Shown here piece by piece: positions 16,323 to 54,282 of a DNA stretch of 64,000 bases. The notes beneath the pieces were generated by a model, which was not told the origin of the DNA, did no database searches, and saw only the letters and a list, made by a program, of their open reading frames with translations. Origin of the DNA: Eledone cirrhosa (taxonomy: Eukaryota); contig OZ024740.1 of NCBI GenBank assembly GCA_964016885.1, positions 233,926,001 through 233,990,000 of the forward strand, in the 5' to 3' direction. Within the stretch, counting starts at the first letter, position 1. The number at the start of each line of letters is the position of its first letter. A program made the position numbers and the translations under genes.

Positions 16323-19300
16323 TTTCTGTCCGTCTGGAGGTCTGGACCGAACCAGACCCCTAGCAATTTAATCGGTTCGTCCGTCCAGCACCCGACGACG
16401 CTGTTGGACGGCACAGACCTGCTTCTCCAAGTTGCTGAGCTGCAGGCCCACCGACTTTGTCTGGTAGATCATCTCTCCTGTCACCGCCTTGTATTCTCTT
16501 AGTGTATTGCCGATCGCCTCGATGTGTTTGGCGTTCGACACCACTATGGTGACATCGTCTGCATATGCTGACACGGATCTTCCGCATCCCAGTTCACGCG
16601 GGACCCCCTCAACGCCTCCAGTTTGTGCAGTAATGACTCGAGAGTTAATACGTACAACAGGGACGGGAGGGGAAATCCTTGGAGAACCGAGCGCATGATG
16701 TTTAACGGTTCCGAAAGGTGACCGTTTACTCTCACCACAGAGCAGATGTCGCTGTACATGGCAGCGATCCAGGCTCTGAAGACGGGCCCAAGGCCAGCCG
16801 CCTACAGGACTGCCGCCAGATAACGATGGTCGATCCTATTGAAAGCTTTTGACTGATCTAAATTGACCAAGGACCCACCCGTACCAGGTTCCCTAGCTAC
16901 CCTCTCCACGATGTATCGCATGAGGTGTAGGTTGTCGTGGATGGATCTGTCTGGAATGGCGAATGTCTGCGCCTCTCCTACCAGACCACCAACGACAAGC
17001 AACAACCTCTTTGCTAGAACCTTGGCCAAAATCTTGAACTCTGTGTTTAGCAGGGCCTGGAATTATATATGTTATCCCCCTTGTTCGGATCCTTTCTCAG
17101 CAGCGCCACTGCTCCTCGGCGCACAGAGCTGGGAACTCTCCCGTTCTGTTGACAGTTGCAGTAGAGGTCCGCCAAGATGTCTCCGAACAAGTCTGGCATG
17201 TGTACGTAAAATTCGTAGAGCAGTCCATCCAAACCAGACGATTTACCCCTTGTGCAGCCAGTCATTGCCTCCCGTACTTCAGCGGTTGTTATCGGCTTTT
17301 TGCAATACTCCGCCTCAGTGGCCGAGAGCCGCGGCAACCGTCGAGGTAGGCACTAAAATCCTACCCGCGATCCGGCCCGCCGCTGCCCCCGAACAGCTGA
17401 GCGAAGTGTCGCTGAAAAGCTTCACACATTTGCCCAGGATCGAGTAGCATGCGCCTGTCGTGGTCCATCAAAAACCGGATCGTTGCTTTGTTGCCATGAC
17501 GCGCCTCCGCCACTCGGGCCCATTGAACGGCTTTCGTCCCCTCGTGTCTGAGAGCACGTATCCTAGCTCTGACAACGCAGCCTTCGTACTTTGCATTGAA
17601 GAATTGGTGGAGGGATAATTTAGCCGCAAGCAAGTCGGTCACGAAGCCTTTACTAAGCGCCTCGTCTAATTTTCCAACTAGTTCTCCCTCTGCTCTATTT
17701 TTCTCTATTTGTAACGACTTGCTAAACCTAATGGATTCTATTCTAATCGCTCTTTTCAGAGCAAACCACCATTTGTTGTTGACGTTGGCCCCGTCAACGC
17801 CCGCTTAACTAGTTCGGTAATCCGGTCTCTGTAGGCCTTGCACGATGTTAACGACGGGTTTAGCTTCCAGTAGCCGGCTCCCTGTCTATGAAGCTTATCT
17901 AAGTTAACCTCACAGATCACGAATTTGTGGTCTGTGTAGTCGACTATTTTGAATTGTGGACAGCCTATGCTAGACCTATTTATTTCCCTACAAAATACCC
18001 TATCTAGATATGATCTGGATGACCTGATACGGTTTGTCCATGTTCACGTTGGCACATTCGGGAAATCCAGACAGCTGAAAACGTCTGAGCAGGTTTGCGA
18101 GGCTTTTACACCCTCCTCCCCTATCCACTAATCCCACACAGTCCCAGCGTGCATCTAAGATCCCGTTCCAGTCGCCCACTAACACTAAAGAGCGAGACGT
18201 TCCAAGAAAAGTCTCCAGACGCCGGAAGAAATCTGGCCGCTCTGCTCCTGTCGGTAGACGACCACTAGCCTGAAAGCTTGCCTTTCTCCGCTGGTCACGT
18301 CCAGCACCACCAACTTACCTTCTGCTCCAGGAAGATGGCCCGTATAGTGAGATCCAAGCCTCTCCGAAAAAGTACAGCAACTGCTCCCTCCGATCCTGGA
18401 CGGCTGGGAGATGCGTATACATCGTAGCCGCCGAAGATCGGTGCGAAGGCTCGTGCTTCAGAGATTCTGGTCTTGCTGATGGCCACCACATCTATGTTTA
18501 GTGACCTGAAGTCGTTGAGAAGGTGGCCCTGCTTCCATGACGACCCCAGACCACGCGCATTTATGCTGCCTATTCTGAGTAAGGTGGTGTTGAAATGGCG
18601 TGGAAATAGATGGGAAAGACCACTTACCTCGCTTCTTGTGGAGGGAGGATGGTTTTTCCGTCCTTCACACTGTTTGTGGCCCCCTCCGGCAGGATGTCTT
18701 TATAAATCGTGTTTGTGGGAAGTCTCCGATATCTTTTGGGAATTTTAATTTTAGTGTCGTGTAAGTTTTCTGTGTGATGCGAGTGATTTGTATGTGTGGG
18801 TGGTGTGAATTTTTGGGGTGTTGTATAGTCTTTTTCTGAGATCCTGGTGTTGTATTGGATGTAGTGTAATAATTGGTTGTTGTATTTCCCATTATGCGCC
18901 CTTTTGGTTGCATTACATTACAGACAAGCAAGCAATCATAGAGTTTTAGTAGTATATAGATAAATAATTGTTTCTACTTTTGGCACAAGGCCAGCAATTA
19001 CCTAGTACATTACTGGTACTTTATTTTATCGACCCCGTAAGGATGAAAGGCAAAGTAAACCTCGGCGGTTGTTGTTCAAATTTAATGCTGTGTAGTGTGT
19101 ATCGTTTTGGTTGCTTTGTTTTGTTTGCGTTTGTTGTAGGTTTGTTTCTCTTTCGCTTGTTGGTGATTTTTGTGGTGTTGGATTTTTGTTGTTGTTGGTT
19201 GAACTTTTTTGTTAGTTTGTTTGTTTGTTTCGCCCTGCATCATTTTGTTTTTTTGGAGGGTGAAGGAAGGGGAATTTTTTCTTTTCTAGTTTTTCTTTTT

Positions 19301-20782
19301 TTTTCTTTTTTCCAGATACAATTTCCCACTCCTCCTCATCGTCACAGTCTGTCTCCAGTCGTGGGAGGTCAGGGAGTGGAAAATCCTCCACATGCGTTGG
19401 TTTTGGTTGTGGAGACGCTGGTGCTAATTCTGGCGCGATGGGTGGTGGTGGTGTTGGTTTTGCTACTATGCTGCTACAGTTGCTGCTGTTGTTGTTGCTA
19501 CAGTTGTTGCTGCCATTTCTGCTGCTGGTTTTGATGGTTGAGTTACTGGGGTTGGCAGGAGAGGTGGCGTCAACTTTTTGGCCTGAGGGCAGAAGGCCTT
19601 TAGATGGGTCCCTTCGCCACAAACGACACGCCTATGCCTTCTACCCTCAACGATTACGGTGAGGTGGCTGCCGTCATTGAGATCTATCACCTCTGGAATT
19701 TCCTGTATGTTTTTTTTGGTCCGCTTCGATCAGGAGCTCCATTCCAGATCCGGACCAGTTCTCCTGTTTTATTTTGAGCACCTCGATTACTTTTGTGTCG
19801 GCCTCGATCTCGGTGAAGACGGCAGCCATTAGCCAGGGAATTTCAATGGCCGGAGAAACCTGGGTCACCCTGATCCTTACCATCCTCTGACCACAATAGC
19901 TAGAGACGAGTGTGAACTCGTCACTTTTTTAATGGGGCCATGGAGTGCTCTCTGGCTTCCTGTGGGGTTCCAAAGAACACGTCCACAGTTCCATATATTT
20001 GCACACGTCTGATGTGGGTTTTTTGATCCCACACATGTCCCAAAGCTTTTTGTATCTGGGACTCAGATGCCCGTTCCACTCGGCGTGTTTTAATATTTAT
20101 TGTGCGATATGATACGGTGCATAGGCGCCGATGATTCATGGTATTAGATCGGTGGGGGGAGGCTGACCCTGTAACCATATTTTTTTACCATTCGCTTGGC
20201 TTCATTCAATTCTTCCTGGCTTACCTCAACCTTTTCGTTTTTGTTTGCCGCTTTAGCAAACGACACATTTGGTTTTGCACTGGTGTTGATGTTCTTGTTG
20301 TTATTCTTATTGTTGCTGTTGTTGCTGTTGTTATTTTTGTTATTATTATTTTTAGTTTCAGTTGTGGTGGTGGTGGTGATGGTCGTGGTGGTGGTGGTGT
20401 CACTGGCGTTCGGCGTGGAAGAGTCGATTTTGGGAGAATCCATTTCGCTATCACGAGATAATAATTTATTTTTTGTTTCAGTTGTTGCTGTGTTGGTGGT
20501 GGTGGTGGCGGTAGATGTTAGTCTGTTAGAAACGCTGTCAGTAGATTTGGGTAGCTGAATGCCGTACATATTTTTTTTTGCATAGAAATTTTTGTTTGAT
20601 AAAAGGAAGTTTAAATTATGGGCTCAAGCCCCAATATTATTGAGTGTCCTTTTCAGAAAGCAATATATATGAACTTATAAACACTTAACAACAAAAATGT
20701 TCCATAACTGGTAATTTGAAACAACTGAAAACAACAAACCTTTGTGGAGGTCACGATAATACGATTTCCTACGTAGGTCGCC
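16323..20782 (-). mobile_element. L1-Tx1 clade LINE copy E1 (intact 5' end, 3'-truncated, frameshifted), in SLCO intron
   Basis: ORF1 remnants (N/T-rich N-terminus, CGEGTHLKAFCP knuckle); ORF2 AP-endonuclease (GDWNGILD) and RT (LDQSKAFNRIDH, SAYADDVT); 5' end abuts (TTA)n. Confidence 0.9.
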
Positions 20783-20880
20783 AATAATAATAATGCTTTC
20801 GTTATTTATTTATTTTTTTTATTATTATTATTTTTTATTTTTTTATTTATTCATAAATAAATAAAAAAAAATAAAATAAA

Positions 20881-23800
20881 TAATAATGATGATTTTTATT
20901 GGCCTCAAGGGCTGACATCAAGAAAAACATTACAGAGGGTACAGGACGGTACGATGTGGGTTTTGTGCGTGTAAAGATTTTTATTATTTATATAAGAAAA
21001 GAAAAAAAGACAGAAACATATATATATACTCAAGGGCGGTGCCCCAGCATGGCCTCAGCCGGATGGCTGAAACAGGTAAAAGAGGTAAAAGAGATATATA
21101 AACAATAAAAATGAAAATTGAAACAATAAAACATTCCCTAATAGGGGGTAAACCTTCGAGGGTTACTCGTGGCGAAAACAACACAGAGACCACGGCCAAG
21201 CGCCCTCTCTCAATTTTTTCCAATTCCTCAAACTACAAGCGTATATTCAGAGCGGTCCCGTTCACTCGGACCATTCTCGCTACATTCACCCACCTTTCAA
21301 CAAACTTGCTAGAAGACAGCACTTGCCTTTCACTCTGATTTTCCTCTTCAAGTGAAACTTGAAAAAGTTAATCAGGGATTCGCCAAAGAGGAAAGTGTTT
21401 GTCTTTAACCCTTTTAACCTTCTCCACCACACAATCTCTTTTGCCATGGCCACCAGGCAGATGAAAACTGCCTGCCCTTCCTCCTCGAAGGAAGACGGCG
21501 AGACCATCTGCACAATGGACTCAGTTGATAACCGGATCCGTCCTAAACGCGACAGCAACTGTTCGACAAGTCAGCAATCCTCGGGCACTGAACGAGTGCG
21601 TGCAGGACGGTTTCATCGTCCTGCGCGCATCTCGGACAGGCTCGGCTGACAACACCTCCGTGCCTGTAGAGCTTATCCCGAACCGGCAACGCTCCCCGGT
21701 AGCACTGACAGGCCAGGGATTTCTGGAAATTGTCCATAGGCCCTGGGCTGATAGTTCTCTTGAAGAGAGCAAACAGCTGCTCGGCTTCGACGCCCATGGT
21801 TTTACTGAGAACGTCGTCGCTCTTCCCTTCTTCGGTCTTTTTCTGATCCGGGACTGCAGCTCCGTCAAGAAGACGAACTAGGGAAAAGTGCGTCTGGCAA
21901 ACGGCGACCACACCTGTTCACCGTCAAAGAAGCACCAGAGATGTCGTAGCCTCAGCGCATGTTTGCGCATCATCAGTTACGGCATGCCCAGTCCTCCACG
22001 CAACGGGCGCTGACAGCAGATGGATCGTTTGACCATGGGAGCACGTCCCTTCCACAAAAAATGGAAGAGAAGGCGTTCCATTTTGCTCAGAGTTGGACGG
22101 GGGAAAGGTACGACGGTCAGGCGGTAGCAGATGACGGACGCGATGTACGCATTTGCCACCTCCGACCGACCTTTCAGAGACAGCCTCCTCGCAGCCCATT
22201 TCTGGGTGAGAGCAGCCACTCTGCTCGTCACCTCGCGCCAGTTTTTCTCCATCTGGAGGTCCGGACCGAACCAGACCCCGAGCAATTTAACCAGTCCTTC
22301 CATCCAGCGCACCACGACGCAGTCGGACGGCATGGACTTGCCTCTCCAGGTGCCGAGCTGCAAGCCTACCGCTTTTCCTGGTTTACCTTTGACCCTGTCA
22401 CCGCTTCGTATTCCTTGAGAGCGGTGCTGAGCATCTGGACGTGTTCGGTGCTCGACACCACCACGGTGACGTCGTCGGCGTAAGCCGACACGGATCTCCC
22501 GCATCCCAGTTCGCGAGGGACCCCTCCTCATTTTCTCCAATTTGTGCAGTAATGGCTCGAGGGCCAGTATGTACAAGAGGGCGGATCGAGCGCATGATGC
22601 TGAACGGCTGCGACAGGTGACCATTCACCCTCACAATCGATCAGATGTTGCTGTGTATCGCAGCGATCCAGCCTCTAAAAACGGGCCCGAAGCCGGCCGC
22701 CTCGAGGACAGCAGCCAGGGACCGATGGTCGACCGTATCAAATGCTTCAGATTGATCCAAGTTGTTCAGGGCCCCACCCGTGCCAGGTTCCTTAACCACA
22801 CTCTCTATGATGTATCGCATGAGATGGAGGTTGTCGTGGATGGATCTGTCCGGAATGACGCATGTATTCGCCTCTCCCACCAGATCATCGACGACAAGCG
22901 CCAATCTCTTTGCTAACACCTTGGCCAAAATCTTGAACTCTGTGTTTAGCAGAGTTAGGGGCCTGAAGTTGTCTATAGCGTCCCCTTTGTACAGGTTTTT
23001 TCTCAGCAGCACCACCACTCCTCGGCTCACAAAATTGGGAATGTTCCCGTTCTGCTTCCAGTTGCAGTAGACGTCTGCCAAGCGGTCGCCGAACAAGTTT
23101 GGCATGTACGCATAAAGCTTGTAGTGTAGACCATCCAAACCTGGCGATTTACCACACGTGCAGTTAGACATCGCTTCCCGTATTTCACCTGCTGTTATCG
23201 GCCTTTCGCACAACTGCGCTGCGGTCGCCGAAAGCTGCGGCAGTCCGTCAAGGTATGCATACTCCGATCCTGCCCACCGCCGCCCCCGAACAATCGAGCA
23301 AAGTGCTGTTGAAAAGCTGCACACATCTGCTCGGGTTCGAGCAACAAGCACCCGTTTTGATCAGGCAAAGACCGTATTGTGGATTTGTTGCCACGTCGCG
23401 CCTCCACCACCCGGGCCCATTGAACGGCTTTCGTCCCCTCGTGTCTCAGAGCATGCGCTCTAGCTCTGACAACGCATCCTTCATGCTTTGCGTTGAAGAA
23501 TTGGTCGAGTGCCAATCACGCCAATCTTAAATTGTGGACTACCTATACTAGCCTTATCTGTTTCCCTACAGAATACTCTATCTAAATACGACCTGGATGA
23601 CCCGCCCGATGCGGTTTGCCCATGTCCACATTGGTACATTCGGTTAATCCAGTCTATACCTTTCAAGAAGTTCAAAACGTCTGAGCAGGTTGTTGAGGCT
23701 TTTATACCCTCCTATTCTGTCTACTAGCCCCGCATAATCCCACCGTGCATTTAAGATACCGTTCCAGTGGCCCACTAATACTAAGGAGCGGGACGTTCCA

Positions 23801-26459
23801 AGAAAGGTCTCTAGACGTCTGAAGAAATCTGGCAGTCCTGCCCTGTTGGGGCGTAGGCGGCCACTAGTCTGAAAGCATTGCCTTCGCTGCCGCCCACGTC
23901 CAGCACCACCAACTTACCTTCTGTGTCCAGGAAGATGGCCCGTATGGCGAGATCCAAGCCTCTCCGAAAAAACACAGTAACCCCCCCCCCCCCCCCGATC
24001 CTGGACGGCTGGGAGATGCGTATACATCGTAGCCGCCAAAGATCGGTGCGGAGGCTCGTGCTTCGGAGATTCTGGTCTTGTTGATGGCCACCACGTCTAT
24101 GTTTAGTGATCTGAGGTCGTTGAGCAGGTGACCCTGCTTCCAAGATGACCCCAAGCCACGTGCATTTATGCTGCCTATTCTAAGTACGGCCATGTTGGAT
24201 GAGGAACGGGGCAAGTGAGAAAGGGTCACTTACCTTGATCGTGTGGGGAACGGACAGAGGATCTTCCCCTCGGTTGGTCATGGGTGTCTCCAAGACGATA
24301 TCTTTGTAGATTCATTTGGAGTGTGACCCTCTGAAAGCCCCAACTGCGTTGGGGAATTTTTGTTTTAATTGTTGGTAGTTTTCGAGTTCAATTCCTACAA
24401 TGTTAATGATTTTGATAATGTTCTTGGTGTTGGTGGTGTGTGGTTATTTACGTCTGAAATATCGGTGTGATGTTTTATGTGTTCCATTAGTCCTTGGGGT
24501 GCAATGTTTATGGCTGTGTACTTTTTGGGGGAAGGGGTGGTTTTATTGTTGTTTTCTTGTTGTTGCTGTTGGGTATGTGTGCTTTGTTGTTGCTGTTGGG
24601 TATGTGTGCTTTGTTGTGTTTGTGATGTTGGTGTTTTTGGTGATGTTGGTGGAGGTGTGGTTGTTGTTGGTGATGATGGTGATTTTGGTGGTGTTGCTGC
24701 AAGTCTCCTTGCAGTCTTTATTCTTCTTTCTTTGCCTTCGCTTTTGGAGGGAGGAGCTGTGGTGTTTTTTCGTTTGTTTTTTTTTCCTTTTTGTTTTTGT
24801 TAACAACCGTTTTCCACTCCTCAGCCGCTTTATACTCCATATCCGACTGTGAGAGGTCGGGGAGGGGTATGAGTTCTACCCTCTCATTTGTCTTTGTAGT
24901 TGTTGGTGGTGGAGTCTGGTTTGCTGCTTCTGGCACAAGTGCAGCTAGTGCAACTGTTACTGTTGTTGCAGCTGCCGTCGCTGTTTTTGTTGTCCGTGGC
25001 TTTGGTGTGGGTACCACGGACGTTGTTTTCTTATTCTCTGTAGAAGCTTTCAATGTTTTCGTTGACTGCTCTGTTTCTGATGGCAGTGGTTCCGGCATTG
25101 GAAGGAGGGTGACATTGGCCTTTGTTATTTTCTGTGGGCAGAAAGCCCCGAAGTGAGACTTTGATCCACAGTTAAAGAACTTTGGGCGCCTTCCTTCAAC
25201 GGATATGGGAAGTTGGGAGCCATTCCCGAGATCTATTACGTCAGGAATAGCGCTGATGCAGTCCAGGTCGGTTTGGATGAGCATCTCCATTCCAATACCG
25301 GACCAGTCCTCTCTCCCCAACTTCTGTAACTGCAGAATGGTTGTTTTACCTTCGATGCCCGCTAGAAAAGACACGAGTAGCCAAGGAACGGGTACGTAGG
25401 GCGGGATCTGGGTTACATTGACCTTTGCAATTTTTTCCCGCAGTAAAACGGGATAAACGTTATGTCATCACTCCGTAGGGTCCTCAGTGAGTCCGATGTT
25501 GCTTCCTGGGTGGTAGCAAAAAGGACGTCCACAGTAGCATATTTCTAGCCACGGGTGATGTGGGTTTTCCGTGCCCACACAGTTCCCAAGGCCTTCTGGA
25601 TTTGGGCCTCCAAGGCTTTCTCCACACGACGCGATTTCGTGGCAATCGTGCGGTACGACACTGTGCGTCGCTCTTGTTCCTCCAGGAAGTCGGTTGGTGG
25701 TTTCAAGGATATTGAAAATTCAGTTCTGGTTACCATGTGTCTTGCGACCACCATCTCCTCCTCTGTGATGATGATTGTTTCTACGTTGTGAGTTACCTTT
25801 GCAAAAGAGGTGGTCTCTTTTTCAGTGACGTCATTGTTGCCGCCGCTACTGCTGATACTGGTCTTGTTGTTGGTGCTGTTGCTGTTGCCACTACTACAAA
25901 CGGTGTTGTTGGTGTTGTTGCTGTTATCACCTTTGCAGTTGGTTGTGTTATTGGTACCGCCGTTGTTGTTTTTCTCGGTGCAATTTGTATTGTTGCTGTT
26001 GGTGTTGTCGCTATTTGTTTTCATGTTATTGTTGTTGCATTTGTTGTCATTTTTTCTGTTGTCAGTTACTGTTGTAGTTGGTGTGGTCATTTTTTTTCAA
26101 AATTAGTGTTCTCAGTGTGTTGTCATTGCTGTCTTTGTTCACGTTGTGTGTGGTGGTGTTTGTTGTATCAATTTCTGTGTTCACCGTAAACCTCCTCTCA
26201 ACTTTTACGTCATTGTCACACGACAGCAGACATATCACTGGGAGGCGTGGCTCAGCTATGATTTTTTTTACGATAATTTTTAAATCTAAAAAGTTCAAAT
26301 ATTTGGGCCATAAGGTCCAAACATTATACTTTCCCCTTCACAGGGCAAAGTCCAAGGGCTTATATCCCTTATTCAACAACAGAAATTTTACAATAAATAA
26401 TTCATGACAGGTAAATAAAGAGACTTACGAGAGCGAGCAAAAAGCCGTCCGATCAGACC
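20881..26459 (-). mobile_element. L1-Tx1 clade LINE copy E2, full span but mutated
   Basis: 5'UTR; ORF1 (NCGSKSHFGAFCP); ORF2 with EN (INARGL), RT (RPLTLLNTEFKILAKVLAKRL) and zf-RVT (LPVRDKL...CPRC); AATAAA and (ATT)n tail. Confidence 0.92.
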
Positions 26460-26560
26460 AATAATAATAATAATAATTGTTTCTACTTTTTTAGCACAAG
26501 GCCAGCAATTATCCCATTGCATTACTAGTACTTACAAGGACGAATGGTAACTCTGCGTTA
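26460..26560 (-). mobile_element. SINE remnant whose (ATT)n tail adjoins the 5' end of E2
   Basis: aataattgtttctact..gcacaaggccagcaatt. Confidence 0.7.
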
Positions 26561-27231: not shown

Positions 27232-27666
<435 letters not shown>

Positions 27667-27685
27667 TGTATATGTAAAAATTACC

Positions 27686-29300: not shown

Positions 29301-29313
29301 TTTGGTAGATTTA

Positions 29314-29371: not shown

Positions 29372-29376
29372 CATAC

Positions 29377-30232: not shown

Positions 30233-30452
30233 TAATGGTTTCTTATATAGGCACAATGCCAGCAATTTTGGGTGAGGGGAAAGTCGATTCAACCGACTCC
30301 AGTGCGTGACTGGTACTTTATTTTATCGACCCCGTAAGGATGAAAGGAAAAGTTAACCTCGGCGGGATTTGAACTCAGATCATAAAGAGCCGTAACTCTA
30401 TGCTGCAAAGCTTGGCGTCCAACCATCTACCGATACTGCTAATGCACCGCCC
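30233..30452 (-). mobile_element. SINE (longer subfamily) with TSD tgtgggtgcttct
   Basis: Full head, body and tail; flanking direct repeat. Confidence 0.85.
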
Positions 30453-39060: not shown

Positions 39061-40148
39061 TAATAATTGTTTCTACTTTTGGCACAAGGCCAGCAATTAT
39101 CCAGTACATTACTGGTACTTTATTTTATCGACCCCCCGTAAGGATGAAAGGCAAAGTTAACCTCGGTGGGATTTGAACTGAGACCATAAAGGGCCATAAC
39201 TCTTTGCTGCAAAGCATGGCGTCCGACCCTCTACCGATACTGCCAATCCACCGCCCTAGATAAGAGTAATAATGATTTGTTGATATTTTAATAATAGACA
39301 ATAACGTATCTTTTATCGCAACAACATCATCGTCGTCTTCGTCCTAGACATTGTTTCTAACATAGGAAAGAAGTTAGAAATGTTTTAAGAGTTTGTAGTC
39401 GATTAAATCGACTCAGTACTTGACTGGTATTTTATTTTATCATCCCCAGAAGGATGGCGGACAGAGATGACCTTGGTGGGATTTGAATTCACAAAATAAA
39501 CGAATGTAACTAAATGCCACACAGTAACTTGTCTGCCACTCTACCGATGTTGCTATTTATCTTAGTAATATTGTCTCTACCTTTTAGCAGCAATTACCCC
39601 AGTGCATTACTGGTGTTTTATTTTATCGACCCGGTAAGGATGAAAGGCAAAGTTAACCTCGGCAGGATTTGAACTCAGAACATAAAAGGACATAACTATG
39701 CTGGAAAGCATAGTGTTCGCCTCTCTACCGATACTGCCAATCTACCCCCTAAACCATGTTAATAATAATAATTTCTTGTACGAGAATAAAGCTAGAAATG
39801 TTGAGGTGTTGAGGTAAGTAGACTAAATCAGCCACACTACTTGAGTGCTGCTATATTTTCTCGACCCCGAAAAGTTGAAAGACAAAGTTGATCTCAGTTA
39901 GATTTGAACACAGAACGTAGAAAGCTGTAACAAACACCACAAGACATAATAGTTTCTTATATAGGCACACGACCAGCAATTTTGGAGGAGGCGAAAGTCG
40001 ATTAAATCGCTCCCAGTGCGTGACTGGTACTTTATTTTATCGACCCCGTAAGGATGAAAGGCAAAGTTAACCTCGGCGGGATTTGAACTCAAACCGTAAA
40101 GGGGCGTAACTCAATGATGCAAAGCATGGTGTCCGACCCTCTACCGAT
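39061..40148 (-). mobile_element. Head-to-tail cluster of five SINE copies of different divergence
   Basis: Five tail-to-head units starting near 39061, 39350, 39565, 39770 and 39947; the first has TSD tagataagagtaataat. Confidence 0.85.
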
Positions 40149-40149
40149 T

Positions 40150-43100: not shown

Positions 43101-45728
43101 AGTCCCAGCGTGCGTCTAAGATACCGTTCCAGTCCCCCGCTAACAGTAAAGGGCGAGACGTACCCAGAAAGGCTTCCAGGCGTCTAAAGAAGTCCGGCGT
43201 CCTGCCCAAGTAGGGGCATAGACGGCCACCAGTCTAAAGGCACCACCTTCTTTATTGTTCACGTCCAGGACCACCAGCTTCCCGTCCGGGTCCCGGAAGA
43301 TCGACCTTACCTCGAGATCCAGGCCTTTCCTAAACAGCACTGCGACCCCCCCCCCATTCCGACCGGCTAACAGATGCAAAGATCTGATAGTCGTCGAAAA
43401 TGGGGGCTAGTGCGCGCGTGTCGGAAATCCTCGTCTCGCTGACGGCAATTACATCCATTTCTATAGACCTGAGGTCGTTGAGCAGGTGACCCTGCTTCCA
43501 GGACGATCCCAGGCCTCGAACATTCAAACATCCTACTCTTAATACGGCCATGTTGGCAGGTTAAAAAGAGAGAGAGGAAGGTTTACTTATCTTCCGGGCT
43601 CTTGTGAAGGTCGGGTTGTTCGACCTCCATAGTTGGTGGGGTTTCTTTTGGGAACCCCTTTAAAAGTCTTGAAGTGGATTTTACGTTCGGTGTTCCCACG
43701 TCCCGAGGAAAGCTGTCTCGTACTTCTTTGAATATATCGATCGACATTCACACCAGAACCAAATCTTCCAGCACGCGAAATGTGCTCGATTTAAAAATTT
43801 CCCCCTCTTTTTGTATATTTTCACTTCGTGCTACGAGGGCCATCAGTTCCTTGTTGGACCCCCTGACGAGCACGAAGTTTTGTATGTCTTGTTGGTGTGA
43901 TTTTATTTGTTTGCGTGGCTGTAGTGGTTTTGATGGTGTTGTTTCGGTTGTGTCTGTGTTTGTTGTGAGTGCGGTGTCTGTGGTTTCAGATGTTTGTGTG
44001 TATATTTGTTCTTGCGTCTGTTTAGGTTGTTTGCGTTTGGGGGATTCTGGTGATGGTGATGGTGGTGTTGATGTTGGTATTATTGGAGAGATGTTTGCGT
44101 GGGTGGTGTCTGCGTTTTTTATTGGGGGTGATTTTGTGCTTTGTTGAGTTTTTTTTTCTTTTTGTGTTTCCCTTTTTGTATTTTTGGGGATTTTGGTTTT
44201 CCCTCATCTTCACTACTGGTAGATGAGGGGTCTGTGTCTGTAAGTGTGTCTGTATGTATGTTTATGGTTTTATTGGTGTGTGTATTTTGGGGGGAGGGGG
44301 AATTTGACAGCTTTCCTCGTTTCCCCCCTGGGTGATCAATGTTGGTGGTGGTTTTGCCGGTGCTGGTGTTGGTTGTGGTCCTCTCCCCGGCGTCGGCAGC
44401 AGTGGAGCCTTTCGACCCCTTGCCTCTTTCAGCAGTTGAGGGCAGAAGGCTCGCAAATGGGTTTTTTCCCCCACAAACAAAACACTGCGGCCTTTTGCCT
44501 TCGGTCATAATGTGAATGACCGTCCCATTCTGAAGGCAGATTGTCTTCACATTCTCGGGCCTGATCTGGAGAAGGATCTCCAGGTCAACCCCGGACCAGG
44601 CCTCTCTGGTCGTTCTGGTCACTTCTATAGGGACGGTATCCGTCCCCTCCACAATCACACATCCCAGAAGCCACCACATGTCAAGTACTGGTGGGATTCT
44701 GGGAATGCGGAGACGGGCCGTTCTTTTTCCCATGTGGGAGGGGTACATTATGACCTTGCTGGTTTTGCAAGGAGTCATAGCGTGTTTCATAGCGAGGGCT
44801 TCTGACTTGAACAACACCGAAATGGTGCCGTACTGTCTGCCCCTCGCTATGTATTCGGTGTCTTCTCTGATGCACCTCAGCGCGACTTCGACATCTGCTG
44901 CCCAGTTGGTTTGTGCTGCCCAGTTGGTTTGTGCTGAGATGCATCTATAATGCACCGTTCTGCGCTCCACTGCCTCAATAGCTTCTACCGGGACAGTTAA
45001 GTTGGTCCAGGTTTGTTCTTGCTTAATCAGCTTCCATGCCTGGGCCAATTTTTCGTCTTTGTTTGAGAGGTCCATGTTGAAGCATGGCCTCTTTTTTGCT
45101 GCTGCCGCAGCGAAAGTGTTCTTTTTGTTTTCGTTGGAGGTGTTGTTGTTGTCGTTGTCGTTGTTCTTGTTGGTGTTGTTGTTATCACTGTCGCTGTTAT
45201 CAGTGTTGTCTTTGTTGCCACCGTTGTTCTCGGTGCAGTTGGTATTGTTGGTGTTGGTGCTATTTGTTTTCATGTTAGTGGCATTGATATTGTTGCATTT
45301 GTCATTTTTTTTTTTTTGTTATCTGTATTTTCGTTGTCGCTGTTACTGTCATTTTTTTTTAAAATTAGAGTTCTCATTGGTATCATTGGTGTCTTTGTTT
45401 ACATTGTTTTTGGTGGTGTTTGTGTTATCATTGTGTGTTAATTTCGCTGTAGCGCTCCTCTCAACTTCTACGTCGTTGTCGCACGACAGGAGACATATCG
45501 CTGGGGGGCGTGGCTCAGCCATGTTATTTTTTTCTTCTTAAATTTTTTAACATGTAAAAAAAGTTCAAATATTTGGGCCAAAAGGCCCAAATATTATACT
45601 TTCCCCTTCACGGGGCAAAGTCTAAGGGCTTATATCCCTTACACAACAAGAAATATTTAACATCAAATAATTTTAACAGGCAAATAAAGCGACTTACTGG
45701 GAGCGAGCAAAATACGTCCGCTTAGACC
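40150..45728 (-). mobile_element. L1-Tx1 clade LINE copy E3, full span, internal RT deletion
   Basis: ORF1 44119-45273 with CFVCG..HLRAFCP; ORF2 MAVLRVGCLNVRGL, GDWNG, GPGYWKLN; both ends flanked by (AAT)n. Confidence 0.92.
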
Positions 45729-45873
45729 AATAATAATAATAATAATTGTTTCTACTTTAGGCACAAGGCCAGCAATTACCCAGTACATTACTGGTACTTT
45801 ATTTTATCGACCCCGTAAGGATGAAAGGCAAAGTTATCCTCGGCGGGATTTGAACTCAGATCGTAAAGGGACG
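45729..45873 (-). mobile_element. SINE whose (ATT)n tail adjoins the 5' end of E3
   Basis: Tail, body and B-box match the family; head replaced by a templated insertion. Confidence 0.85.
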
Positions 45874-45931
45874 AAAACAAAAAGAACACTTTCGCTGCGG
45901 CAGCAGCAAAAAAGAGGCCATGCTTCAACAT

Positions 45932-48900
45932 AATAATAATAATGCTTTCTTTATTAACCACAAGGGTTTACACAAAGTAAGACATTAAGGACAGTACAGG
46001 ACAATACAGGACGGTACAAATTGGCATTTATGCGTGTAAAAAAAAAAAAAACAGAGGATGTAACAAAAAAAGAAACAACGAAAAATCCCCCAATAGGGGG
46101 GGGCGGGTCTTCCGTGGGACATTAGTGGAGAAAGCCCATTAAAAAAGCTACGGTGACCCTGACCACCAGGGCAAGTGCCCTCTCCCAGTTTTCCACCTTT
46201 AATTTACAGGCACATACTCAGAGTAGGCCTATTCACTCGGGCCATTCTAGCCTCTCTCACCCATCTTTCAACAAAATGCTGGGAAGAGAGCACTTCCCTC
46301 TCTACCCTGATTTTCCTTTTCGAATGAAATTTGAAAAAGTTAATCAGGGCATCACCGTAGAGGTAAGTGCTCGTCTTCAGCCCTTTCAAACGTGGCTAAA
46401 GGAAGAGGGCGGGGCAATCCTCACGATGGACTCAGCTGATAGCCGGATCCATCCTACACACGACAGCAGGTGTCCGACATAAACCCACAAGTCAGCAATG
46501 CTCGGACACTGGACGAGTGCGCGCAGGACGGTTTCGTCGCCCTGCACGCATCTCAGACATGTCCGGCTGACGACACCTCCATGCCTGTAGAGTTTATCCC
46601 GAACTGGCAAAGCTCCTCAGTAGCACTGCCAGGCCAGGGATTTCTGGAAGTTGTCCATGAAAGTTCTTCCGAAGAGAATGGCTAATTGATTTTCGTCGAC
46701 GCCTAGAGTTTCCCCAAGTACGTCGTCGCTCTTCCCCTCCATTAATCCTCTATAGAACGCCAAGGTGGAGTTTCCACCGATCACATTGCCCGATTGGTCG
46801 AGGGCTGTGAGCGTCTAAAGACATTCCAGTATCCAAGCACTCCCTCTCGGTCTTCGCTTGACCCAGGTCTGCAGCTCCGTCAAGGAGACGAGCTGGGGAA
46901 AGACGTGTCTAGCAAACGGCGACCACACCTGATCACCGTCGAGGAAGAGGTGGAGATGTCGTAGCCTGAGCGCGTGTCTGCGCATCATCAGCCACGGCAT
47001 GCCCAGCCTTCCACGTAGCGAGTGTTGACAGCAGATGGACCACCTGACCATCGGAGCGCGTCCCTTCCACAAAAAGCGAAAGAGCAAACGCTCCAGCGCA
47101 GTCAGGCGAGGCTTAGGACAAGGTACGACGGTCAGGCGGTAGTAGATGACGGATGCGATGTACGCATTCGCCACCTCCGCTCGAACTTTCAGGGATAGCT
47201 TCCTCTCTGCCCATTTCTGGGTGAGAGAAGCCACCCTACTCGTCACCTCGTCCCAGTTTTTGTCCGTCTGTAGGTCCGGACCGAAACAGACCCCCAGCAA
47301 TTTAACCGTTCCGTCCGTCCAGCGCCCGACAACGCTGTTGGACGGCATGGACCTGCCTCTCCAGGTGCCGAGCTGCAGACCCACCAACTTTTCCTGGTTG
47401 ATCATTGCTCCTGTCACCGCTTCGTATTCTCTTAGTGTAGTGCCGATCGCCTCGATGTGTTTGGCGTTCGACACTACTACGGTGACATCGTTCGCATATG
47501 CTGACACGGATCTTCCGCATCCTAGTTCGCGCGGGATCCCCCTCAACGTCTCCAGTTTGTGCAGTAATGACTCGAGAGTCAATACGTACGAGAGGGACGA
47601 GAGGGAACATCCTTGGCGGACCGAGCGCATGATGTTGAACGGTTCCGAAAGGTGACCGTTGACTCTCACCACAGAGCAGATGTCGCTGTGTATGTCAGCG
47701 ATCCAGCCTCTGAAGACGGGCCCAAAGCCAGCCGCCCTCAGGGATTCCGCCAGATAACGATAGTCGACCCTATCGAAAGCTTTCGACTGATCTAAATTGA
47801 TGAAGGACCCACCGTGCCAGGTTCCCTAGCTACCCTCTCCACGATGTATCGCATGAGGTGGAGGTTGTTGTGGATGGATATGTCTGGAATGGCGCATGTC
47901 TGTGCTTCTCCCACCAGACCACCAACGACAAGCGCCAACTTCTTTGCTAGCACCTTGGCCAAAATCTTGAACTCTGTGTTTAGCAGAGTTATGGGCCTGA
48001 AATTATCTATGTTATCCCCCTTGTTTGGATCCTTTCTCAGCAGCGCCACCGCTCCTCGGCTCACAGAGCTGTGAATTCTCCCGTTCTGTTGCCAGTTGCA
48101 GTAAACGTCCGCCAAGAGGCCTCCGAACAAGTCTGGCATCTGTATGTAAAGTTCATAGGGCAGACCATCCAAACCAGGCGATTTACCCCTTGTGCAGCCA
48201 GTCATTGTCTCCCGTACTTCAGCGGCTGTTATCGACTTTTCGCAATACTCCGCCTCAGTAGCCGAGAGCCGCGGCAGTCCGTCGAGGTAGGCACTAAAAT
48301 CCATCCCTCGATCCGGCGCGCCGTTGCCCCCGAATAGCTGAGCGAAGTGTCGCTGAAAAGCTTCACACATTTGCCCGGGATCGAGTAGCATGCGCCCGTT
48401 GTGGTCCACCAAAGACCGGATCGTGACTTTATTGCCACGACGCGCCTCCGCCACTCGGGCCCATTGAACGGCTTTCGTCCCCTCGTGTCTGAGAGCACGC
48501 ATCCTAGCTGTGACAACGCAGCCTTCGTGCTTTGCATTGAAGAATTGGTCAAGGGCCAATTTCGCCGCAAGTACGTCGGTCGCGAAGCCTTTACTAAGCG
48601 CCTCGTCTAATTTTCTAACTAGTTCTCCCTCTGCTCCATTTTTCTCTATTGCTAAAGCCTTACTAAACCTAATGGACTCTATTCTAATCGCTCTTTTCAG
48701 AGCAAACCACCATTTTGTTGTTGACGATGGCCCCAGTCAACGCCTGCTTAACTAATTCGCTAATCCGGTCTCTGTAGACCTTGCGCACTGTTAATGATGC
48801 GTTTAGCTCCCAGTACCCGGGTCCCTGTCTATGAAGCCTATCTAAGTCAACCTCACAGATCACGAATTTGTGGTCTGTGTAGTCGACTATTTTGAAATGT

Positions 48901-51552
48901 GGACAGTCTAAGCTAGACCTATCTATTTCCCTACAAAATACCCTATCTAGATATGATCTGGATGACCCGATGCGTTTTATCCATGTCCACATTGGCACAT
49001 TCGGGAAATTCAGACGGTACCTGTCAGACAGTTGAAACCGTCTGAGAAGGTTTGCGAGGATTTTACACCCTCCTCCCCTATCCGTTAATCCCACACAGTC
49101 CCAGCGTGCATCTATGATCCCGTTCCAGTCGCCCACTAACACTAAAGAGCGGGACGTTCAAAGAAAGGTCTCCAGACGCCGGAAGAAATCAGGCCGCCCT
49201 GCTCTTGACGGGGCATAGACGGCCACTAGCCTGAAAGCTGCTCGTCTCCACTGGTCACGTCCAGCACCACCAACTTACCTTCTGGGTCCAGGAAGATGGC
49301 CCGTATGACGAGATTCAAACCTCACCGAAAAACCACATGAACTCCTCCCCCCGATCCAGGACGGCTGGGAGATGAGTACACATCGTAGCCGCCGAAGATC
49401 AGTGCTTCGGAGATTCTGGTCTCGCTAATGGCCACCACATCTATGTTTAGAGACCTGAGGTCGTTGAGCAGGTGGCCCTGCTTCCATGCCGACCCCAGGC
49501 CACGCGCATTTATGCTGCCTATTCTGAATGAGGTCATGTTGAAAAGGAATGGAAAAAGATTGGAAAGACCACTTACCTTACTTCTCGTAGAGAAGGATGG
49601 TTTCTCCATCCTTCTCACAGCTTGTGGCCTTCTCCGGAAGGATGACCTTATAAATCCTCCTGGGGAGTGTTTGTCGGAAGTCTCCGATGTCCTTGGGGAA
49701 TTTTTGTTTTAGTGTCGTGTACGTTTTCTGTGTGATGCGAGTGATTTGTATGTGTGGAGGTGGTGTGAATTTTTGGGGTGTTGTGTAGTCTTTTTCTGAG
49801 ATGCTGGTGTTGTGTTAGATGTAGTGTAATAATTGGGTTTTTGTTCAAATTTAATACTGTGTAGTGTGTATCATTTTGGTTGTTTTGTTTTGTTTGCGTT
49901 TGTTGTGGGTTTGTTTCTGTTTCGCTTTTTAGTGATTTTTGTGGTGTTGGTCATGGTGGTTGTGGGGTTAATGATGGTGTTTGTGGTGATGGGGCTGGTG
50001 ATGCTGGTGTGGGTGGTGGCATAGCTGTCTTAGCGTTTTTATTTGTTTGCTTATTTGTTTCCCCCTGCATTTTGTTTTTGGAGGGTGAAGGAAGAGGATT
50101 TTTTTCTTTTTGGGGTTCTTTTTTCTTTTTCATTTTTCCTGATACCATTTCCCATTCCTCGTCGTCACAATCTGTCTCCAGTTGGGATAGGTCGGGGAGT
50201 GGAAAATCCTCCACAGGCGTTGGTTTTGGATGTGGCCTGGTGGATGGTGGAGGCGCTGGTGCTAATTCTGGCGCGGTGGGTGGTGGTGGTGTTGGTTTTG
50301 ATACTGTTGCTTCTGTTGTTGCTGCTACAGTTGTTGCTGCCATTTCTGCTACTGGTGGTTTTGATGGTTGAGTCACTGGGGTGGGTAGGAGAGGTGACCT
50401 CAACTTTTTAGCCTGAGGGCAGAAAGCCTTTAGGTGGGTTCCTTCACCACAACGACACACCTAGGCCTTCTACCCTCAATGATTACGGTTAGGTGGCTGC
50501 CGTTATAGAGGTCTATCACCTCCGGAATTTCCTCAATGTTGTTTTGGTCCGATTGGATCAGGAGTTCCATCCCATATCCGGACCAGTTCTCCTGCTTTTC
50601 TTTTGTTACCTCAATTATTTTCGTGTTGGCCTAGATGCCGGCGAGGACGGCAGCCATTAGCCAGGGAATTTCAATGGCCGGCGGAACGTGGGTCACCCTG
50701 ATTTTCACGAGTCTCTGACCACAATAGCTTGGGACGAGTGTGAACTCGTCACTTCTTAATGGAGCCATGGAGTGCTCTTTGGCTTCCTGTGGGGTTCCAA
50801 AGAACACGTCCACGGTTCCATATTTCTGCCTACATCTGATGTCAGTTTTTTTCGCCCACACATGTCCCAAAGCTTTTTGTATCTGGGACTCGGATGCCCA
50901 TTCCAGTCGGCGCGATTTTGTGTTTATCGTCCGATATAACACGGTGCATAGGCGCCGATGTTCCCTTTTATTAGAAGGGGGTGAGGCTGACCCTGTACCC
51001 ATCGATCTTTATACCATTTTCTTGGCTTCATTTAATTCATCCTGGCTTACCTCGATTTATTTGCTTTTCTTGGTTGCTTTGGCAAAGACGCATTTTGTTT
51101 TGAGCTGGTGTTTATGTTGTTGTTGTTATTCTCATTGTTGTTGTTGTTGCTGTTGTTGCTATTGTTATTTTTAGTTTCAGTTGTGGTGGAGGTGGTGGTG
51201 GTATCAGTGGTGTTCGGCATGGAAGAGTCGATTCTGGGTGAATCCATTTCGATGTCACGAGATAATAATTTATTTTTTTCTTTTGTTTCTGTTGTCGCTG
51301 TGGTGGTGGTGTGGATGGCGGCTTTAACACCTGCAGTTTTTGGTAATGGCAGGAAATGAATGTCAGCATGAGACAAATTTAAATTATTGCTAGTGCTTAT
51401 ATTTTTAGTGTTGGCAAACGTAGTAATATTTACAATGGTGGTGTTGGTGTGAGGTGTTAGTTTGCGAGGAAGGCTGTCAGCTTGGTGTGGCTGTGATTTG
51501 TCCATGATTTTTTCAAAGAAAATTTTTGTTTGATAATTATAAAAGTTTAAAT
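45932..51552 (-). mobile_element. L1-Tx1 clade LINE copy E4 (same subfamily as E1), 5'UTR clipped
   Basis: ORF1 51505 to ~49575; ORF2 EN/RT fragments (RSVRQGC, SAYANDV); 3' AATAAAGAAAGC(ATT)n. Confidence 0.92.
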
Positions 51553-54282
51553 CACAACATGCCCAGCCCTGCGCATAGAGGGTACTGGCAGCAGATGGGC
51601 CGCCTCATGAACGGAAACTGACCCCTGCGCAAGAATTTGATGGGGCCGGTCCAATTTGCTGAGGCGCGAACGGGGGCAAGGCACGAGGGTCAAGCAGTAG
51701 TAGATGACGGATACGATGTACGCGTTCACCACATCCACGCGACCTTTCATGGACAGCTTCCGCTTTGCCCATTTCTGGGTGAGAGTGGCTACCCTGATCG
51801 TAACCTCGTCCGAATTCTTATTCACTCAGAAGTCTAGTCCAAACCAGTCCCCGAGCAACTTTACCGGTCCGTCCGTCGAGCATGTGACGACGCTGTTGGA
51901 CGGCGTTTAGTTGCCTCTCCAGGTGCCGAGCTGCAAGCCCACCGACTTTTCCGGGTTAAATTTCGACCCCCTCAACTTTTCATATTCTTCCAAGAAGATG
52001 CCGACCACCTCGATTCCCAAGTCTTCCACACCATCACAATGATGTCGTCTGCATATACCGACAGCCCTTTCGCGTTCCGGTTCGATTGCGATGCCCTGCA
52101 ACAGCTCCAGATTCCACAGTAAAGGCTCGAATTTCGGCTGACGTTATCAGCCTTTCGCAGCGCTCAGCATCGGCTATCGAAAGATATGGTAGGCCGTCGA
52201 AAGCGTAGGGGCTGAAGTCTGCCACCTTTTTTCGACCCACCACTCCCCCCCCCCCGAACAGCCGGGAAAAGTGCTGGCGAAAAGCCTCATAATCTGCCTA
52301 GAATCTTTCAGCTCGCATCCGAATTGTGGTTTTGTTACCCCGCGGGTCCATCAAACAGTCTTGGTTCCCTCGTTTCTTAGAGCACGAACCTTAGCTCTGA
52401 CAATGCAGCCCTAGTGTTTGGCATTGAAGAAATGGTCTAATGCCATTCTCACCGGTAGCACGCCAGATGCAATGCCACTACAAATAGCCTCGTCTAATTT
52501 TGCTATCAGCTACCCTCCTTTCTATTTTTCTTTAACGCTACTTCTTTAACGCTACCTATGTATCTTACTCTAATCTCTCTTTTGAGAGCTCCCCACCACC
52601 TGTTGTTGACGACCCACGCACCCCTGTCAACGTTTGCTTAACTAAATTGTTGATCTGGTCCCTGTAAGCCTATATGCCCAAAATGTTCAGCTTCCACTAA
52701 CTAGATCCTAACCTGCGCGACTTAGAAATTACGAACTTGTGATCTGAATAGGTGACCGTTTGAAAGTGTGGACAGCCAACACTATTCCTATCTACTGTCC
52801 TAATGAATAACCTATCTATATACAATCTAGATGACTCTATGCGGTTGGTCCAGGTCCACACTGGCGCATTAGGGAAATTAGATGGTACTTGTCACACAGT
52901 TGGAACTGGCTGATACTTGAGGCTTTTGCACCCCTCGCTCCTATCAGTTACCCCCACACAATCCCAGCGTGCGTCTAAGATGTTGATCCGGTCCCCTGGT
53001 AGCAGTAAAAAGCGAGACATTCCCAGAAAAGCTTCCAGGTGCCTAAGAAGTCCGACCGTCCGGCCCCAGTCGGGGCGTAGACGGCCACCTGTCTAAAAGC
53101 AACACCTCCACTATTGATTCACGTCCAAAATCAACAACTTACCGTCCGGGTCCCGAAAGCTCGATCTTACCTTAAGATACAGGCCTTCCCTACATAGCAC
53201 TGCCACCCCACTTCCCATTCTCGGCCGACTAATATATGCAAAAGTCTGATAGTCGTCGAAAATGTGGGCAAGTGTAGGCATGTCGGAATTCCTGGTCTCG
53301 CTAACGGCAATCACATCCATATCTCGTGACCTGAGGTCGTTAAGCAGGCAACGCTGCTTCAGGCGCTGAACATTTATACATGCTACTCTTAGGATTACCT
53401 TGTTGGCAGGCTAAACGAGAGAGAGGAAAGTTTTACTGACCTTCCGGGAGCTTGTGGAGGTCGGGTGGTTTGAACTCCATGGTTGGTGGGGTTTCCCTTG
53501 TGAACTCCTTTAACAATCTTAAAGTGGATTTCATATTAGGGGTTCCCACGTCCCGAGGAAAGCTCTTCCTAATTTCGTTGTATGCACCGAGCAACATATG
53601 TACCATCGTTACGTCCTCAAGTATGTAGTGTTGGTGTTGTTGCGGAAGTGTTTGTATGGCGTCTGTGGTTTCAGATGTTTGTATCTGTGTGTGTATTTTT
53701 TGGGAGGCGGGGGAATGGGAGAACATTCCTCGTTTTCCCCTTGTGTTGGTCTTGCTGGTGGTGGTGGTGGTTCGAGTGGTGTTGCTGCTGTTTGTGGTGC
53801 TGCCGCTGTCGATGCTGGTTGAACTCTTCGTCTCGGCACTGACGTTTGCAGCAACGGATGCTTGTGACATCCTGCATTTTTGAGCTGAGGGCAGAAGAAT
53901 CTCCAAATCCATCCCGTGTCACTACTTTCTATCTGTTTTTAACGTCTATTAGGGTACTGCCGGTACCCTTCTCACCCACGCACCCCAGGAGCTACCATAG
54001 ATTCAGTCTTGGTGGGATCCTGAGAATGCGAACCATTACATTCCTTTTGCCCACGTGGGGCAAGTACATCAAAATGAGGTCCATTCTACAGGGGCCACCG
54101 AGTTTTTAATAGCAAAGGGCTCGATTTTGAATAGCACCGAGATGGTGCCGAATTGCTTGGCTCTTGCTTTGTCCTCTTTTGTTGTTGTCGCTGTTGGTGT
54201 TGTTCTTGGTGTTGTTGTTGTTGTTGTTCTCGTTGTTGGTGTTGTTTTTAATTACGTTGTGGCTCTTGGAGTTGTTGTTGGC
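51553..54282 (-). mobile_element. L1-Tx1 clade LINE copy E5 (same subfamily as E3), heavily deleted
   Basis: MDVIAVSETR EN fragment; RT fragments (KSVGLQLGTWRG); ORF1 C-terminus FPRDVGTPN shared with E3. Confidence 0.85.

Follow-up and report, generated by a model that had tools for sequence, protein, structure and literature searches.

It is only partly understood how long interspersed nuclear elements (LINEs) with two open reading frames (ORF1 and ORF2) obtain much ORF1 protein but very little ORF2 protein from one RNA. Splicing of L1 RNA in mammals is regarded as harmful to the element. In two-ORF LINEs the ORF1 stop can be coupled to the ORF2 start by an overlapping UAAUG or AUGA, as in the case of silkworm SART1. 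Xenopus Tx1L, the type element of the Tx1 group, has two ORFs, a CCHC-type ORF1 and an endonuclease-reverse transcriptase ORF2, and Tx1 elements are known for site-specific insertion. Splice donors inside element RNA have been described in other systems. In the shGAG strategy of Ty1/Copia elements (Arabidopsis EVD and its relatives), a conserved U1-like donor lies near the end of GAG, and the account proposes that U1 serves splicing to a capsid-only mRNA and, where the RNA stays unspliced, the full-length RNA (PMC5580714). Human LINE-1 is described to have working splice donors in its RNA, which lie in the 5' untranslated region (5'UTR) and give intra-5'UTR or 5'UTR/ORF1 splices; the spliced RNAs are copied back as SpIREs, but splicing is reported to inhibit retrotransposition and SpIREs are dead ends (PMC5860796). 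Chimeras of LINE-1 with cellular RNAs, some with junctions at donor or acceptor sites and with new 5' parts, have also been reported (Law and Burns, 10.1101/2025.02.02.635956). Here we analyzed a window of 64,000 nt, the whole stretch under study, at positions 233,926,001-233,990,000 of contig OZ024740.1 in the 3.0-Gb genome of Eledone cirrhosa. The window contains five copies, E1-E5, of a two-ORF LINE, every one on the minus strand, in which a nine-letter sequence that looks like a 5' splice site, AAGGTAAGT or a close variant of it, lies on the ORF1 stop. Our literature search, which covered few subscription journals, found no description of a conserved donor at a LINE ORF1/ORF2 junction.

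The nine-letter block on the ORF1 stop

Our leading explanation, to which we assign a probability of roughly 45%, is that AAGGTAAGT on the ORF1 stop is a selected nucleotide element, likely a U1-binding or splice-donor signal on the element RNA. We favor a U1-type reading because the block matches the donor consensus exactly, forms an island of invariance, is read in two registers, has held where a comparable coding site drifted, keeps 8 of 9 matches in a diverged lineage, and coincides with the boundary of a chimeric subfamily. The preliminary description of the window had reported a donor-like site at each of the five ORF1/ORF2 junctions, and the letters and coordinates of all five are as given there (Table 1). 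Also as given there, CAAC and the ORF2 start follow the AAG by 39, 40, 39, 39 and 39 nt, with the ATG changed in E1 and E5.

When the genome was searched for matches to the E4, E3 and E2 junctions, 4,054, 2,979 and 2,523 first-look candidates were obtained, of which 40 each were scored. They fall into three diverged subfamilies, A (E1 and E4), B (E3 and the old E5) and C (E2); the N-termini of the A and B ORF2 proteins are ~71% identical. The U1-type 5' splice-site consensus MAG/GURAGU, in which the slash marks the exon/intron boundary, is the complement of the U1 5' end, and the majority motif in A, in B and in C is AAGGTAAGT, an exact match to its DNA form MAG/GTRAGT. The deviant letters of E3 and E5 are really present in the window, but they are private mutations of copies whose subfamilies read AAGGTAAGT. 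Because the old B-type copies L277 and L287 retain GGTAAGT, we regard both GTCAGT in E5 and GTTAGT in the copy L179 as private changes.

The same nine letters are read in two registers, and their conservation, which is at the nucleotide level, is not tied to one frame. ORF1 ends with GAA GTA AGG TAA in subfamily A (open ORF1 upstream up to 465 codons), with GAA GGT AAG TAA in B (up to 501 codons) and with CAA GGT AAG TGA in C (192 codons at the longest), and a further lineage, D, ends with CAC AGG TAA. The ORF1 stop is thus in the register AGG TAA (Arg-stop) in A and D and GGT AAG TRA (Gly-Lys-stop) in B and C. Two registers had been noticed before, although E2 had been assigned AGG TAA; its subfamily ends GGT AAG TGA, and E2 was misread because of a private 1-nt deletion upstream, ~30 nt before the motif (E4 has such a deletion 22 nt before its motif). 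The ORF1 of B ends in P-E-G-K, resembling an E-G-K-L site inside ORF2.

Three real copies each of A, B and C were aligned over the spacer, with 240 nt of ORF1 tail before it and 260 nt of ORF2 after it. Within the 300 columns that precede the ORF2 ATG, the 9-mer exceeds every other invariant run, the runner-up being 3 nt. Of the other columns upstream of the ATG, 27% are invariant, and a run of 9 or more appeared in 41 of 20,000 column shuffles. Only one longer invariant block, of 11 nt, was found, within ORF2. A larger, unbiased sample comprised the first 100 of 6,539 matches along contig 1, anchored on a degenerate ORF2 peptide pattern that lies outside the motif. GGTAAGT was kept in 93 of the 100 copies, so that the reported conservation also holds in this sample; AAGGTAAGT was found in 69 copies, ACGGTAAGT in 23, one-base variants in three, small deletions in two, and the older-lineage forms CAGGTAATT, CAGGTAGAT and GAGGTTAGT in the remaining three. 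The distance from AAG to the ORF2 start, which had been described as fixed at 39-40 nt, is so in the five window copies, but among the copies sampled more widely it spans 37-40 nt for types A, B and C and 52-54 nt for lineage D.

A coding site 309 nt downstream, within ORF2, served as a control. There E-G-K is written GAR GGT AAG in A, C and D, and the corresponding site reads GAC GGG or GGA AAG in B. The GGT of B has thus drifted synonymously in ORF2 but not at the end of ORF1, implying that peptide coding alone explains the motif poorly, as had been suggested from the window. We estimate that, given a Gly-Lys-stop ending, a full match to the consensus would arise by chance in ~1 of 64 cases. 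In the full-length A copy L091, positions 3025-3033 at this site form a second exact AAGGTAAGT, coding E-G-K-L and shared by other A copies; its pattern suggests coding drift, not a second signal. Apart from the junction motif, U1-like sites on the sense strand are limited to this coding site (+309), which is specific to A, C and D, and a single AAGGTGAGG in B, so the idea that such sites are enriched on the sense strand was rejected.

The spacer after GTAAGT was described as pyrimidine-rich and diverged, and both features are borne out: pyrimidines make up 75-80% of it in each of the four lineages A-D, although its sequence differs among them. An AG was found within the spacer in 0/22 copies of A, 0/24 of B, 2/18 of C and 20/21 of D. 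The E5 spacer also contains an AG (TTTAG), as do those of other old B-type copies. In E4 the last letter of the first AG is at 49524, which is 53 nt downstream of the G of GT. Another lineage, B', has a different spacer with the motif intact and 37 nt to the ATG.

Lineage D gave 2,894 first-look candidates, of which we examined 60 copies picked by the upstream 22 nt alone. Its site reads CAGGTAATT (CAG/GTAATT) in 38/60, CAGGTAAAT or CAGGTAAAG in 10/60 and CAGGTAAAA in 1/60, and GT is retained in 55/60.

A chimeric subfamily with its breakpoint at the block

Subfamily A', which accounts for 26 of the 100 sampled junction-bearing copies, consists of a C-type ORF1 joined to an A-type ORF1 tail and ORF2. 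All 26 copies have one identical junction, ...ACGATCAAG/TGAAAAGG (also written ...ACGATCAAG/TGAAAAGGGATG). At the point where A' departs from them, C-type copies run on as GTAAGT, and A-type copies read AAGCAG right before TGAAAAGG, so the material missing from A' would begin with GT and end with AG. For one A' copy, L130 (junction ~1,367 nt from the start of the oriented locus), identity to seven A and eight C copies was measured in 100-nt windows. Upstream of the junction, up to CAAG, this copy is 88-96% identical to C over ~370 nt and has no match to A; windows wholly downstream resemble A instead, at 96-100% identity over 1.5 kb. Across the junction the chimeric ORF1 stays open for 470 codons, the A-type tail peptide being brought back into frame by one extra G that follows shortly after.

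A splice origin of A' needs a C-type element followed by an A-type one, and this is the order of E2 and E1 in the window, which lie ~330 bp apart. In a read-through transcript of such stacked elements, the C donor could be spliced to an AG on the A side, giving A'. We consider the chance that A' arose by splicing to be somewhat better than even. A search for further chimeras at C-type donors gave 50 matches, of which 46 were A' with one base changed, judged from the matched letters, one was a deleted A' and three were unrelated satellite. The loci L235 and L236 (contig 28, ~106.69 and ~112.52 Mb) are tandem satellite with a unit of ~70-75 bp that matches one of the search patterns by chance.

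The ORF2 sequences of A, A' and D differ by only 0.01-0.03 substitutions per site, and yet these lineages have unrelated ORF1 tails and spacers, which makes the boundary between ORF1 and ORF2 a module boundary in this LINE group. For the ORF2 tree 20 copies were chosen, and three (A_L024, Ap_L112 and C_L063) were left out because the anchor pattern missed them. Ap_L117 and C_L066 share a long branch in this tree.

Weighing the explanations

On the U1 reading, the U1 small nuclear ribonucleoprotein would pair with the motif at 8 of 9 positions in A, B and C, and also at 8 of 9 in D, where position -3 became C while the G at +5 was lost. Its binding, or occasional splicing, may set the ratio of full-length bicistronic RNA to ORF1-only RNA. 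The donor was probably used at least once between stacked elements, when C-type ORF1 sequence would have been joined at AAG to the A-type tail after an AG, founding A'. The fuller proposal, that this LINE group has kept a consensus U1 donor on its ORF1 stop which both balances its RNAs and splices between stacked elements, thereby shuffling ORF1 and ORF2 modules, is more tentative, and we regard it as possible but doubtful. If the U1 reading is correct, some LINEs would use the host splicing or U1 machinery in their expression plan as plant Ty1/Copia elements do. If A' arose by splicing between stacked copies, LINE subfamilies would have a concrete way of exchanging modules, which bears on the origin of new active lineages, and inter-element splicing would already have founded a subfamily that makes up about a quarter of the junction-bearing copies.

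A number of observations weigh against the U1 reading. Searching for motifs finds some by chance, and this motif overlaps the ORF1 stop and the last codons in every lineage, so that coding or termination accounts for part of its conservation. A large sub-branch of A' has ACG/GT (a synonymous change of AGG to CGG; 23/100 copies), and D thrives without the G at +5 in both of its sub-branches (TT, 38/60; AT or AG, 11/60), which together indicate that a perfect donor site is dispensable. The evidence from A' is also limited: it is a single event, its A-side acceptor has a poor pyrimidine tract, its junction carries a 2-nt AG microhomology, and recombination by other routes must be frequent because the lineages are mosaics.

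Copies of spliced RNA, which the preliminary description had proposed to look for as processed copies lacking ORF2 sequence from this GT, were not found. Among B copies with the exact 22-nt upstream context, 438/448 keep GT, and the other 10 (three with a first base other than G and a second other than T, seven with G followed by a base other than T) all show point changes or tiny insertions and deletions with the spacer intact. Processed copies thus number 0/448 in B, where junctions beginning with AT, CT or TT were not searched, and 0/60 in D, where the internal deletions of two copies begin elsewhere than at GT; all 6/6 non-GT copies of A are deletions of a few bases. This result speaks against spliced RNAs from which ORF2 protein could still be produced in cis. 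For RNAs without ORF2 expression the absence is hardly informative, since LINE proteins act preferentially on their own encoding RNA (this is established for L1 and assumed here).

Simple scans for U1-like motifs and poly(A) signals detected neither a conserved premature poly(A) site nor a strong acceptor downstream of the motif. AATAAA or ATTAAA occurs 4-7 times on the sense strand against ~3.7 expected, and the occurrences downstream of the motif are unshared (+694 in one of two A copies; +1157/+1158 in two B copies). Protection from premature polyadenylation, one of the roles suggested earlier for the site, is not favored, as these signals are few and none is conserved near the motif. Of the idea of a U1-type signal, then, the exact consensus match in A, B and C stands, but the sequence tests did not bear out its use as a donor in RNA.

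None of the sequencing runs listed for the element is recorded as RNA. We also compared sequence contigs with the element, four sets against a full-length A copy and three against the junction. Coverage by these contigs increases toward the 3' end, and their records are many and very short; they are probably low-coverage DNA and so uninformative on expression. In these DNA-like contigs no joint starting at the motif (L091 2718) was among the joints listed (15 of 464, and 12). Contigs from two other organisms, X6 and X7, showed none among the variants listed between L091 2707 and 2744, and their loose ends have the same C, D, B' and A' forms; X6 and X7 are close relatives, and their agreement counts in favor of the U1 reading.

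Distant relatives add a further point against the reading. Seventy metagenomic loci encode relatives of ORF2, mostly 22-33% identical and up to 48% on short segments. Of 18 distant relatives in which the ORF2 start and the upstream DNA are present, 17 are without a donor-like motif near the ORF1 stop; their junctions are an overlapping ATGA in 5/18 and spacers of 2-124 nt in most others. In one distant relative, L371, a 524-codon ORF1 ends GGT GAG TAA ~69 nt before the ORF2 ATG, which is donor-like and in the B/C register. The motif belongs to the LINE group of this genome and not to the wider clade.

The best surviving alternative is that the block is a module for ORF1 termination and ORF2 translation. 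In that case it would be kept for its stops in two frames (TAA, then TRA four bases later) and their context, which would fix the place where ORF1 ends, the pyrimidine spacer and CAAC-AUG would permit reinitiation or internal entry, and the donor likeness would be a side effect. ORF1 ends within the block in every lineage (TAA at +2 to +4 in A and D, TRA at +6 to +8 in B and C), D keeps only AGGTAA (Arg-stop) and the T at +6 while the non-coding +5 has changed, and the AAG>ACG change in the A' sub-branch is synonymous for Arg. CAACATG is invariant in the A/B/C alignment, the stop-to-AUG distance is narrow in A, B and C (31-34 nt), and the pyrimidine content of the spacer is the same in four lineages in spite of their different sequences. 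Against this, A keeps the G at +5, the T at +6 and AAG at -3 to -1, none of which is needed for an Arg-stop, and has lost the second stop (TGG), so that a two-frame safety stop is not maintained. Moreover, the stop-to-AUG distance is 48-50 nt in D, distant relatives use other junctions, and a breakpoint of A' exactly at AAG/GT is not predicted. We think this explanation unlikely.

Descent and coding without any further signal could also be considered. The last codons and the stop would simply have been inherited, a 1-base frame change in the low-complexity ORF1 tail would have put the existing GGTAAGT in a new register with its TAA as the stop, the donor likeness would be chance, and A' would have formed by reverse transcriptase template switching or by DNA deletion between stacked copies. 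In B and C all nine letters are indeed coding or stop, and the first ~15 spacer bases after the block are also fairly similar among A, B and C, showing that some of the identity is plain relatedness. The mosaic lineages speak for frequent recombination, the 2-nt AG microhomology at the A' junction fits template switching or end joining, and the processed-copy counts do not contradict such an origin. However, the rest of the ORF1 tail is 27% invariant with no other run longer than 3 nt, and the comparable Gly codon in ORF2 has drifted. It is also improbable that the one 9-mer kept would be MAGGTRAGT (4 of 262,144 nine-mers; for a Gly-Lys-stop ending, the estimate given above), and a random breakpoint would rarely fall exactly on the exon/intron boundary of that same motif. 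We therefore take this explanation to be quite unlikely.

A third possibility is a mini-intron of ~50 nt, made up of GT, an AG-free pyrimidine stretch and the first AG, whose removal would delete the ORF1 stop (as well as the ORF2 AUG for A, B and C), giving an ORF1-only output or an ORF1-ORF2 fusion. Counting from the G of GT, A reaches its first AG after 52 nt, A' after 52-53, B after 53-54, C after 54 and D after 47-49, to be compared with a mean AG spacing of 14 nt in the element. D is the most intron-like, with a branch-like CTCAC, a pyrimidine tract and ...CCTAG/CCAACATG; the earlier statement that the spacer has no conserved acceptor thus applies to A, B and C but not to D. RNAs spliced in this way would be unable to make ORF2 in cis, which would also explain why no processed copies exist. 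On the other hand, vertebrate introns usually need more than ~50 nt to work, the distance is only 36 nt in B', and AG-free gaps of 60-112 nt occur elsewhere in the element. The coding outcome is not conserved either (A in frame, B and C with an immediate TAG, D out of frame), and the expected product CAG/CCAACATG was found in 0/60 D copies. We judge a mini-intron to be very unlikely. Its in-frame form, as a source of ORF1-ORF2 fusions, was rejected because only A is in frame. A frameshift fusion was rejected as a general mechanism as well: the ORF2 frame of A is open from the motif on (its stop-to-stop frame starts at L091 2718), but that of B, in the full-length copy L093, starts only 33 nt after the motif, so that a stop lies just before it in the spacer.

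A conserved RNA hairpin holding the ORF1 stop, in which the purine-rich block pairs with the start of the pyrimidine spacer, is most improbable, since the block pairs with ACCUUCC (7 bp) in B and with UCACUUGCC (9 bp) in C but partners and registers differ between lineages, A and D pair weakly or not at all, comparison with shuffled sequences gives z-scores of -0.93 for A, -2.25 for B, -0.27 for C and -0.19 for D, and no structure is common to the lineages.

The elements of the window and their relation to known systems

ORF2 of L091, an open frame of 1,138 aa, matches the Pfam families Exo_endo_phos (1.7e-10), RVT_1 (1.6e-28) and zf-RVT (3e-07). In ORF1 translations a CCHC knuckle, C-x2-C-x4-H-x4-C, was recognized by eye only, as Pfam gave no match. 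It is followed by a low-complexity tail of ~270 aa rich in P, T, K and Q (L094 1359-2783 and A-type translations), which diverges strongly between subfamilies and also has no Pfam match. A protein search found no relatives of ORF1 among candidates of 261-832 residues. The informative names among the 120 protein relatives listed were "Transposon TX1 uncharacterized 149 kDa protein" (a coral record, 31% identity) and an ascidian "Pol-like protein", so that "Tx1-like" seems a loose yet reasonable label.

Positions in Table 1 are counted from the first letter of the stretch. The LINE copies at 16322-26478 and 40014-53897 stand head-to-tail on one strand with gaps of only ~190-330 bp, and on contig 1 many anchor matches are same-strand pairs or triplets 5.5-6 kb apart, with the subfamilies often mixed. 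Such stacking suggests an insertion that prefers a site at or near the ends of earlier copies. The window also contains a 337-aa open frame with a match to PIF1-like helicase (Pfam PF05970, E 1.2e-15), probably part of a Helitron-type element. Scattered through it on both strands are fragments of ~150-215 bp matching the end of the B-type element (L093 ~6440-6660), which are probably heavily 5'-truncated copies.

Table 1. Features of the 64,000-nt window; ORF2 start positions are given with the spacers.
Feature	Position	Strand	Remarks
E1 motif	18622..18630	-	GAGGTAAGT; subfamily A; in the subfamily the TAA within the motif is the ORF1 stop (AGG TAA)
E2 motif	24228..24236	-	AAGGTAAGT; subfamily C; subfamily ORF1 end GGT AAG TGA
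E3 motif	43585..43593	-	AAGATAAGT; subfamily B; private G>A at +1; subfamily reads AAGGTAAGT, ORF1 end GGT AAG TAA
E4 motif	49571..49579	-	AAGGTAAGT; subfamily A, full-length copy
E5 motif	53435..53443	-	AAGGTCAGT; old B-type copy; private A>C at +3
E1 spacer	18589..18621	-	ORF2 start position 18586-18588, ATG changed to ACC
E2 spacer	24194..24227	-	ORF2 ATG 24191-24193
E3 spacer	43552..43584	-	ORF2 ATG 43549-43551
E4 spacer	49538..49570	-	pyrimidine-rich, AG-free; between GTAAGT and ORF2 ATG (49535-49537)
E5 spacer	53402..53434	-	ORF2 start position 53399-53401, ATG changed to AAG
E1, A-type	16322..20793	-	approximate ends; 3' part missing
E2, C-type	21122..26478	-	approximate ends; upstream of E1, head-to-tail
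E3, whole B-type	40014..45747	-	aligned to full-length copy L093
E4, whole A-type	45932..51552	-	aligned to full-length copy L091; truncated E5 adjoins upstream; E3 ~185 bp downstream
E5, old B-type	51558..53897	-	truncation within ORF2
PIF1-like open frame	8810-9823	-	
B-type end fragments	3285-3468, 30300-30452, 35348-35499, 39061-39276, 39588-39772, 54311-54495, 57447-57631	both	match to L093 end

Among known systems, the shGAG strategy of Ty1/Copia shares with this LINE a U1-like donor at the end of a capsid-like ORF, if ORF1 is put in place of GAG by analogy, and the same need for far more structural protein than polymerase. As described in their published account, however, those are plant long terminal repeat (LTR) elements with a single GAG-POL frame, in which an intron of a few hundred nt has been proven and both its acceptor and a premature terminator have been mapped. 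This LINE has two ORFs and the candidate donor on the ORF1 stop, with no conserved acceptor or terminator; a premature poly(A) site soon after the splice junction, of the Ty1/Copia type, was not found in it. Overlapping stop-start coupling, as in other two-ORF LINEs, appears as ATGA in five of the 18 distant relatives, but here stop and AUG do not overlap, being separated by 31-34 nt in A, B and C and by 48-50 nt in D. The site-specific insertion of Tx1 elements might underlie the head-to-tail stacks seen here.

The donors of human LINE-1 lie in the 5'UTR, whereas the site in this LINE is at the ORF1/ORF2 junction and is kept between subfamilies. SpIRE-like copies are absent from the B (0/448) and D (0/60) samples, and the one candidate product of splicing, A', is not a dead end like the SpIREs but a thriving subfamily. 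The LINE-1 chimeras of Law and Burns, as far as their report describes them, resemble the origin that we propose for A' in having a splice-site junction to a near full-length LINE. They differ in that host first exons are joined to L1, whereas in A' two LINE subfamilies would have been joined with their own conserved motif as the donor, and most of ORF1 was replaced.

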